DNA of 64,000 nucleotides. Origin: Eledone cirrhosa (taxonomy: Eukaryota). The translations under genes and the position numbers were made by a program. The stretch is from NCBI GenBank assembly GCA_964016885.1, contig OZ024748.1:31558001-31622000 (forward strand). Direction: 5' to 3'. This document shows positions 60,042 through 61,692 of this stretch, one piece after another (the stretch's first letter is position 1; each line of letters begins with the position of its first letter). The notes below the pieces were generated by a model that was given only the letters and a program-made list of their open reading frames with translations, searched no databases and was not told the DNA's origin.

Positions 60042-61692
60042 TAGAATTCCCTTTTTCGGACTATATTACTGTGAGAGCCCTGGTTTTCTGTTGAGCTCTG
60101 CTGATGAATGATATTCCAACCGTGACCATCTCCACTGAAAGTTTTCATGAAATAGTCTTTTAAGACTATACAGAGCATTTGATGTTATTCCAAATTGAAG
60201 GATAAGTGTTTCAAACTTTGTTTTATCATGAGTTAAAGGTCTATAGATTTTTCCATGGATTTTACTAAATTCTGTGGATGAATTTGTATCCTGATTCTCT
60301 TTTGAGATGAGTTTGAGTTATTTTTCCTAAATCTTTCGTTAACTACTTTTCCCATCTTGACGTTATAGTCGCATATATGTTATAGAATGCCGTTAGCTTC
60401 TTGCTAAAACAATCTCTATACGTCTCATTTATATTTATACTCGGATTCTTTTCCTAGAGTGCTTAAACTATCTGTGACTAATCCCGGTTTTTTTCATAAA
60501 AACTGTGATAATTATTGCTATTTTGCTGAACTCCTTGTAGAGTTTTTTTCAGAATGTATTTGACTGCTATTTCTTGTAAATAAACATTCACTTCCATCCT
60601 GACGTCACTAGCCCCGTTTTTTCCTCATGTGCTTTTTCATAAATACACATGAAGGCGAACTAGCCAGTTTTAGAATTCCCTTTTTCGGACTATATTACTG
60701 TGAGAGCCCTGGTTTTCTGTTGAGCTCTGCTGATGAATGATATTCCAACCGTGACCATCTCCACTGAAAGTTTTCATGAAATAGTCTTTTAAGACTATAC
60801 AGAGCATTTGATGTTATTCCAAATTGAAGGATAAGTGTTTCAAACTTTGTTTTATCATGAGTTAAAGGTCTATAGATTTTTCCATGGATTTTACTAAATT
60901 CTGTGGATGAATTTGTATCCTGATTCTCTTTTGAGATGAGTTTGAGTTATTTTTCCTAAATCTTTCGTTAACTACTTTTCCCATCTTGACGTTATAGTCG
61001 CATATATGTTATAGAATGCCGTTAGCTTCTTGCTAAAACAATCTCTATACGTCTCATTTATATTTATACTCGGATTCTTTTCCTAGAGTGCTTAAACTAT
61101 CTGTGACTAATCCCGGTTTTTTTCATAAAAACTGTGATAATTATTGCTATTTTGCTGAACTCCTTGTAGAGTTTTTTTCAGAATGTATTTGACTGCTATT
61201 TCTTGTAAATAAACATTCACTTCCATCCTGACGTCACTAGCCCCGTTTTTTCCTCATGTGCTTTTTCATAAATACACATGAAGGCGAACTAGCCAGTTTT
61301 AGAATTCCCTTTTTCGGACTATATTACTGTGAGAGCCCTGGTTTTCTGTTGAGCTCTGCTGATGAATGATATTCCAACCGTGACCATCTCCTCTGAAAGT
61401 TTTCATGAAATAGTCTTTTAAGACTATACAGAGCATTTGATGTTATTCCAAATTGAAGGATAAGTGTTTCAAACTTTGTTTTATCATGAGTTAAAGGTCT
61501 ATAGATTTTTCCATGGATTTTACTAAATTCTGTGGATGAATTTGTATCCTGATTCTCTTTTGAGATGAGTTTGAGTTATTTTTCCTAAATCTTTCGTTAA
61601 CTACTTTTCCCATCTTGACGTTATAGTCGCATATATGTTATAGAATGACGTTAGCTTCTTGCTAAAACAATCTCTATACGTCTCATTTATAT
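60042..61692 (+). repeat. Head-to-tail array of 629-bp non-coding HHR units (family G, about 2.6 units)
   Basis: AGAATTCCCTTTTTCGG at 60043, 60672, 61301; units almost identical; TA-rich flanks. Confidence 0.95.
60095..60176 (+). ncRNA. Canonical type-I hammerhead, family G (copies 60724-60805, 61353-61434)
   Basis: GCUCUG-CUGAUGA-AUGA...UCAU-GAAA-UAGUCUU-UU-AAGACUA-UA^CAGAGC; full stem III. Confidence 0.9.

Follow-up and report, generated by a model that had tools for sequence, protein, structure and literature searches.

By what enzyme, and from what template, is a non-coding tandem repeat with a predicted hammerhead ribozyme in every unit copied into (TA)n tracts of the Eledone cirrhosa genome? 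The question is raised by an array in a 64,000-nt stretch of contig OZ024748.1 (GCA_964016885.1, positions 31,558,001 to 31,622,000, forward strand), hereafter the window, to which coordinates refer unless another contig is named. The array is a young insertion of a known class, the non-LTR retrozyme, as a variant of it. We consider it fairly probable that this family (G) is copied into (TA)n by the reverse transcriptase (RT) and GIY-YIG endonuclease of a Hydra-clade Penelope-like element (PLE), with a 629-nt circular RNA as the probable template. The array and its parts are as follows.

60042..61692, plus strand: tandem array of 2.62 units of 629 bp, with unit boundaries set at the fixed 3' end
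60042-60434, plus strand: 5'-truncated unit
60435-61063 and 61064-61692, plus strand: full units
60171..60799, plus strand: cut-to-cut monomer 1, the 629-nt RNA, linear or circular, predicted from sequence
60800-61428, plus strand: cut-to-cut monomer 2, predicted
60020..60043: 5' flank, a short (TA)n run; the junction is a TA microhomology at unit position 237
61688..62146: 3' flank, the long (TA)n target
61684..61697, plus strand: fixed 3' end with TTATAT microhomology to the (TA)n target, the putative start of reverse transcription
60827..60954, plus strand: predicted long irregular hairpin downstream of the cut site, partly retained in the family consensus fold
60600..60607, plus strand: TGACGTCA, candidate internal promoter element about 190 nt upstream of the cut site

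Head-to-tail units are flanked by the two (TA)n runs. Among periods 600 to 659, 629 is the sole one with more than 50% identity, and at this period 1,020 of 1,022 positions agree; both mismatches, at 61392 (loop II of the ribozyme) and 61648, lie in the 3'-most unit. Tandem Repeats Finder missed the array because its longest period is 500. G+C content is low (34%), the longest ATG-started frames on the circularized unit encode 37 amino acids (plus strand) and 45 amino acids (minus strand), and a protein similarity search with the unit returned self matches only. The predicted monomer fold is more stable than those of shuffled sequences (z = -7.4 linear, 20 shuffles; z = -3.5 circular, 40 shuffles). 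The element TGACGTCA, which we take to be CRE-like, is intact in 14 of 17 aligned relatives. The first-pass annotation had described a young, non-coding array with about two differences between units and a TTATAT end merging into (TA)n, and each of these points is borne out by the values above, by the 3' end at 61684..61697 and by the 0.25% divergence of young loci given below. It had also thought the monomer unusually large, but 629 bp lies within the retrozyme consensus lengths of 51-972 bp that stand in the accessible text of Li, Clavereau and Pollet (2026, 10.64898/2026.07.22.740005), an older range being 170-400 nt (Cervera and de la Pena 2020, PMC7229834, accessible text).

The family is widely dispersed. 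Counting of ends and junctions with exact sequence patterns across the 3.0-Gb genome gave at least 185 exact ends at (TA)n and 79 internal junctions for the youngest subfamily, that of this array (G), 872 ends for the parent type (G2, about 98% identity) and 6,666 for older subfamilies, or about 7,700 ends at (TA)n for the whole lineage; control patterns for the three end counts returned 0, 0 and 3. The stem III motif occurs in 2,115 copies. We analysed 130 G or parent-type loci, comprising the 40 best unit matches, 58 short copies from the first 100 listed ends, and 31 further junction loci plus one, with one from a second-end pattern; 60 of roughly 130 short copies were examined, and L045 and L076, which match a sister family best, do not enter the counts. 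Across 113 young loci, 192 differences from the array's unit were found in 77,869 bases (0.25%). The same colinear, non-coding units of about 630 bp recur in 30 loci of a sister family with about 84% identity and in 20 loci picked by hammerhead motif, and several sister retrozyme families are present in the genome. No shared open reading frame is attached to the repeat, upstream or downstream, in these 180 loci (130 G/G2, 30 sister and 20 hammerhead-picked), and in none of them is G the terminal repeat of a coding PLE, an alternative that the first-pass annotation had set against its own reading. G shows the genomic features by which non-LTR retrozymes are defined: dispersed tandem units with type I hammerheads, non-coding and without LTR structure, with signs of retrotransposition. 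Among the sequencing runs listed as carrying the unit, none is recorded as RNA. Contigs from four runs of one study (kind unrecorded, TA junctions skipped) carry mostly parent-type alleles, in shares near 872:185. In one of these runs (X4, kind unrecorded), three contigs matched 60435-61063 at 96% likeness and covered the unit with a single parent-type haplotype.

Each unit carries a predicted ribozyme.

60095..60176, plus strand: type I hammerhead 1, called on motif and stems, predicted cut after 60170, core CUGAUGA at 60101
60724..60805, plus strand: type I hammerhead 2, called on motif and stems, predicted cut after 60799, core CUGAUGA at 60730
61353..61434, plus strand: type I hammerhead 3, predicted cut after 61428, core CUGAUGA at 61359, with the loop II substitution at 61392

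All three predicted hammerheads combine the CUGAUGA core, GAAA and an AUA triplet with a 6-bp stem I, a 4-bp stem II (A10.1-U11.1) and a 33-nt loop II. The full core and 6-bp stem I of the first-pass annotation are thus present throughout, whereas its 8-bp stem III is actually 7 bp with a 4-nt loop; an eighth pair would force a 2-nt loop and has a predicted probability of 0.0. Positions follow the usual hammerhead numbering, in which the core requires A15.1. A competing register allows the core's own AUGA to pair in place of the AUGA of stem II, and for the isolated domain, modelled as secondary structure without tertiary contacts, the catalytic fold has a predicted P of about 0.01 and lies 2.7 kcal/mol higher than the ensemble. 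The stem II ensemble share in the circular monomer is about 0.02, again without tertiary contacts, and the share of the catalytic fold among relatives runs from <0.001 to 0.68. In an alignment of 17 related units, 95.8% of cells in the ribozyme are paired, versus 27-51% in slid controls. Stem I changes from G-C to A-U in 6 of the 17 sequences and stem II from C-G to U-A in 4, which amounts to two compensatory events, not ten, because the aligned sequences are related; the seven pairs of stem III hold no compensatory change in the same 17 units. The core and stems are unchanged in 95/112 young units, and at least two complete hammerheads are found in 26/112 young loci. These patterns suggest that the ribozyme has been kept under selection. 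Rfam returned no hammerhead match on the array, neither at the gathering score nor at E values up to 10, so that the hammerhead is identified by motif, stems and covariation; its long loop II could explain why the models miss it. An Rfam match to snoR1 (E 7.9) was rejected as a chance match. The monomer-competent hammerhead and the expressed circle put forward in the first-pass annotation stand as candidates, the former weakened by the competing stem II register; according to the accessible text of Li et al. (2026, 10.64898/2026.07.22.740005), one of nine predicted Xenopus retrozymes cleaved in vitro.

The ends of the insertions are strongly asymmetric. Copies stop at a fixed 3' end 264 nt beyond the cut site, as seen in 38 of 40 loci that were not chosen by their end and in 18 of 20 diverged relatives. 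On the 5' side copies break off at varying points: the shortest measures 25 bp and the longest about 8 kb, with an excess of copies at 34 and 62 bp; total lengths grade smoothly from 25 bp through 1.1-1.9 units up to 3.7 units. TA adjoins the 3' side in 122/129 loci and the 5' side in 82/129 (about 90 of these loci were picked by an end or junction pattern). This polarity fits that of target-primed reverse transcription from an internal start. By-products of the PLE type are also present, namely the 34- and 62-bp stubs, a tail-only piece, template jumps and one head-to-head copy, the last occurring once in 130 loci, alongside two further inverted pieces downstream of an insertion. Four loci (L051, L106, L043 and L009) have at their 5' junctions short, TA-separated repeats of the element's last 15-35 bases, as if the enzyme had re-primed repeatedly. 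A second 3' end lies 56 nt beyond the hairpin of the fixed end and is rarely used.

60515..60543, plus strand: rarely used second 3' end, at unit position 87 (60521)
60530-60543, plus strand: shrunken second ACTC/GAGT hairpin without inner stem, unit positions 96-109

By pattern, the lineage has four second ends (two of the four matches in one set and two in older subfamilies) versus about 7,700 first ends, a count that may overlook ends displaced relative to the pattern. The idea that this disuse stems from decay of the second hairpin is not supported: an older subfamily retains a 2-bp inner stem there, and still only two second ends were found by pattern in the older subfamilies.

What molecule is copied can be narrowed from the anatomy of the copies. 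The predicted cut site is crossed in 207 units, one of which has a deletion over the site, and a single locus lacks 1 nt of the stem III loop; only 1 of 130 5' ends falls at unit positions 360-370, where the cut lies. A cut linear monomer as sole template is rejected: copying would end after 264 nt, and 5' ends do not accumulate at this site. This leaves a circle or an uncut multimer as the template. Substitutions within arrays bear on the choice between these two, 17 of them being shared by all units of an array that cover the position and 57 being confined to one unit. Eight of the array-wide substitutions are private to one array each, being absent from the other 60-81 young loci that cover the site, and five of the eight run through 3-6 units. 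Private array-wide haplotypes of this kind fit what is expected from repeated copying of one molecule, and the copy anatomy as a whole favours a circular template over an uncut precursor by a clear if not decisive measure. Against a circle stands L021 (G000:C3:122.55 Mb), where A15.1 of the core is changed in all three ribozymes; a dead-core circle could not simply be excised by its own ribozyme and would need the cut of a neighbouring core. L017 carries 474T>C in two of three units, and six long arrays (L091, L092, L094, L096, L097 and L172) consist of mosaic or alternating A-B-A-B units, from which it follows that DNA-level processes can also spread variants. The alternating A-B units of L096, L172 and L091 point to later duplication of a dimer or to dimer circles. 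Scars of RNA editing were also considered and are not claimed: A>G makes up 6/17 array-wide versus 3/57 single-unit substitutions (Fisher p 0.004), but distinct fixed sites divide 5:3 between A>G and T>C (p 0.16).

Two other accounts of the arrays meet this evidence. The same Hydra-type enzyme and start signal could act on an uncut multi-unit parent transcript, the ribozyme serving another step and no circle being copied. Such a template would equally yield a fixed end, variable 5' ends and units that run through the cut site without a scar, hammerhead mutants had no effect on insertion by the Anolis Poseidon element in vitro (Frangieh et al. 2024, PMC11167929), and the dead-core array L021, the two-of-three-unit variant of L017 and the weak predicted folding of the active core all agree with it. 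It would, however, require for each private haplotype an equally long parent with the variant in every unit, and none was found for the eight haplotypes in a young set whose 79 internal junctions equal the genome-wide exact count, although such parents may be missing from the single assembly used; the homogeneity of the parents themselves would also go unexplained, and arrays could only shrink. We therefore regard copying of an uncut transcript as unlikely. Growth at the DNA level, to which Li et al. (2026, 10.64898/2026.07.22.740005) give preference in the accessible text of their discussion, would have roughly one unit inserted and the array then extended and homogenized, satellite-like, by unequal crossing-over and gene conversion. 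Alternating and mosaic units in the long arrays speak for such growth, as does L021. We rate it as quite improbable for the insertions as a whole, since lengths grade smoothly from stubs to multi-unit arrays with a single fixed end, many loci are otherwise identical to the reference unit, and three-unit young arrays hold 4 private variants present in all units versus 1 substitution outside homopolymers in two of three units, where stepwise conversion predicts the reverse.

A candidate for the enzyme comes from a bulged hairpin next to the fixed end, which recurs in PLE fragments elsewhere in the window and had gone unnoticed in the first-pass annotation.

60439..60462, plus strand: bulged hairpin (ACTC, 3-bp inner stem, 2-nt bulge, GAGTGC), 4 nt beyond the internal copy of the fixed end
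61068..61091, plus strand: the same bulged hairpin in the 3'-most unit
43765-44169, 46524-46930 and 50042-50451, minus strand: terminal fragments of a Hydra-clade PLE (family D) with the same hairpin

Among the examined loci the hairpin pattern occurs in 29 distinct non-G strings with different letters, a set picked with a pattern matching G, at a chance rate of about 6 per million positions. An inner stem of at least 3 bp is present in 22/29 of these strings, versus 7/24 in simulated sequence, and a TA run lies 50-68 nt downstream of the hairpin in 20/29, as at the second end of G (56 nt). The family D fragment at 43765-44169 leads to full-length elements of 3.8 kb elsewhere. One of these, L227, has terminal repeats identical over 285 bases, and its 738-aa frame combines the features by which the Hydra clade is described: RWR, DKT, YRDD, CxCX5C and a GIY-YIG-like end. 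Frames of about 740-760 aa are kept in more than 20 of 131 listed family D copies (counted by eye), and the hairpin lies about 130 nt upstream of the ATG in 23 of 29 copies. L226 and L227 belong to a young Hydra-clade PLE family with many intact 745-aa frames genome-wide. The PLE clade names are assigned on motifs, Pfam giving no match for the Hydra protein and a weak RVT_1 match for the Neptune-like protein. From the shared motif, the bulged hairpin is likely to be a recognition signal for the reverse transcriptase, and Hydra-clade Penelope elements are the likely source of the enzyme that moves G. Beyond the hairpin itself, none of 15 hairpin-bearing termini aligns with G (z mostly below 2, the highest of 90 comparisons being 3.8), and a G profile search of 64 Hydra-D loci gave no match; G would accordingly be a long-standing passenger rather than a fresh piece of Hydra-D. 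Several families carry the hairpin, and another of them could be the true partner of G. We found no description of such a hairpin or Hydra link of retrozymes in literature that included few subscription journals.

Two further readings would attach G to PLEs differently. If G were the pseudo-LTR of a coding PLE, the arrays would be its truncated by-products, in keeping with the PLE-type end signals of G and with Xenopus, where similarity to known elements, chiefly to PLE ends, is described for 24 of 57 retrozyme families (Li et al. 2026, 10.64898/2026.07.22.740005, accessible text); the loci inspected are, moreover, a small share of the approximately 7,700 ends. Yet the 180 loci share no upstream or downstream frame, the relatives are without exception colinear with G and non-coding, with units of about 630 bp, the unit has no protein similarity except to itself and the 64 Hydra-D loci lack any match to the G profile, and this reading appears extremely improbable. 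Alternatively, G could be moved by another enzyme. One example is that of a Neptune-like PLE at 16480-18910 of the window: this element, too, terminates in (TA)n at ATAT, and its family has a pair of ends spaced by about 60 nt, both at ATAT microhomology, with a hammerhead upstream. Its tail lacks the ACTC/GAGT hairpin, however, and its minimal hammerhead has a G-C base of stem II and a CUA triplet, as opposed to the A-U and AUA of G and the Hydra-linked families, which makes a Neptune-like or other enzyme very improbable.

The window is rich in related elements. Neptune-like PLEs at 14614-19293, 24901-26563 and 50890-54691 have RT, a CX4CX2C linker and GIY-YIG in broken frames, with the minimal hammerhead in the terminal repeat, inverted 5' copies and both of the spaced ends (about 60 nt apart) at ATAT. 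More Hydra-like PLE frames with a CxCX5C linker, nested and broken, lie at 21231-24931 and 33069-34711; a CUGANGA core was not found at 32472-33069, in the 3' region of a Hydra-like PLE. At 49380-49730, hammerhead-bearing termini of family C stand head to head, and relatives of family C carry the same bulged hairpin. Another retrozyme-like family, a tandem repeat of about 500 bp with a minimal hammerhead and internal TA runs, occupies 749-3602 and 10870-11627, and a 524-bp tandem repeat with a weak hammerhead-like motif at 58010 lies just upstream of G (57880-59294). Between them and the array, at 59634-60020, is an inverted two-armed element with a one-sided tail, whose TA run took the G insertion; it has about ten times the depth of G in runs X1-X3, and a scan found no hammerhead core in it. 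The window also holds a block of AT-rich repeats of about 285 bp, tandem and inverted (28598-32462) and LINE-like elements with endonuclease and RT frames at 5592-9417 (minus strand) and 36810-41017 (plus strand), the second with an unbroken frame of 1,045 aa. PLE-terminus segments in (TA)n at 41103-50890 and at G000:C8:31629600-31640522 recur several times over about 40 kb as a local segmental repeat.

On the reading that we consider fairly probable, copying of a circular retrozyme RNA by a Hydra-type enzyme, the cycle would begin with transcription of an array of at least two units, perhaps via the internal promoter element. Two hammerheads, predicted from motif and covariation, would then excise the 629-nt monomer, with its ends held by stem I, and a host ligase would close it, a ligation step borrowed from Cervera and de la Pena (2020, PMC7229834). 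A Hydra-type protein would bind the bulged hairpin and nick a (TA)n tract, and the freed TA end would anneal to the UUAUAU immediately 5' of the hairpin. The genomic pattern suggests that copying starts from a single base, passes the cut site on its way toward the 5' side and breaks off at no set position, so that the products range from 25-bp stubs to multi-unit arrays of one haplotype each. The 5' end would be joined mostly at TA microhomology, the second arm almost never being made, and older arrays are evidently reshaped later through DNA-level duplication and conversion. Going further, we tentatively propose, as a possibility somewhat short of even, that G is a circular-RNA parasite with a compact, transferable Hydra-clade landing signal and an abandoned second start, in which one strand running round the 629-nt circle writes the arrays.

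Set against known systems, G shares much with metazoan non-LTR retrozymes, which are described in the accessible text of three sources (PMC7229834; PMC7761336; Li et al. 2026) as non-coding, dispersed tandems of low G+C with a type I hammerhead per unit and co-occurring PLEs. G, known here from DNA, is longer than the 170-400 nt circles demonstrated experimentally (PMC7229834, accessible text), and differs in its 7-bp stem III, 33-nt loop II and one fixed insertion end at (TA)n. It also carries a motif pointing to a specific autonomous clade, whereas the accessible part of a 2020 review says that such repeats show none (PMC7761336). The Hydra clade is characterized by (TA)n insertion and canonical hammerheads (Craig et al. 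2021, PMC8557442, accessible text), and its PLEs resemble G in these targets, a hammerhead near the end, 5' truncation and partial tandems. In E. cirrhosa they also have the bulged hairpin next to their first end and, about 60 nt further on, a second end. Unlike them, G has no open reading frame, about 230 nt extra between ribozyme and hairpin, and nothing alignable outside the hairpin. Its second end is almost unused and two-armed insertions are rare, while the Hydra-D-like fragments in the examined loci use both ends about equally, often as inverted pairs. In Anolis Poseidon PAc, as in G, reverse transcription starts within the RNA, downstream of the hammerhead, at AT-rich targets; two adjacent start sites define the PAc tail, whereas the end of G is essentially single (Frangieh et al. 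2024, PMC11167929). In PAc, the one PLE for which in vitro work is available, uncut RNA is the main substrate and the start site is non-homologous to the target (PMC11167929), unlike the start of G, which is homologous; both points weigh against the reading preferred here. Chlamys MRC1-type non-autonomous PLE derivatives are, like G, non-coding, PLE-moved and inserted in multicopy head-to-tail form, but their 3' end resembles that of an autonomous partner and they mostly lack hammerheads (PMC8557442, accessible text).

Two steps of the animal retrozyme life cycle have been proposed but not demonstrated in the accessible papers: the identity of the copying enzyme and the use of a circle as template. 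The accessible text of the retrozyme papers (PMC7229834; Li et al. 2026) likewise proposes PLE mobilization and circular templates without showing them. G supplies a start base and a cis-signal, ready to be paired in vitro with a candidate enzyme family whose frames are intact; with its near-single start site it also offers a natural control when two-site initiation is considered as the model of PLE tails. If the tentative reading of G as a circular-RNA parasite is true, it would name the enzyme of an animal retrozyme, would make a natural RNA circle a template for rolling-circle, target-primed reverse transcription, and would separate the two start sites behind the unexplained PLE tail.
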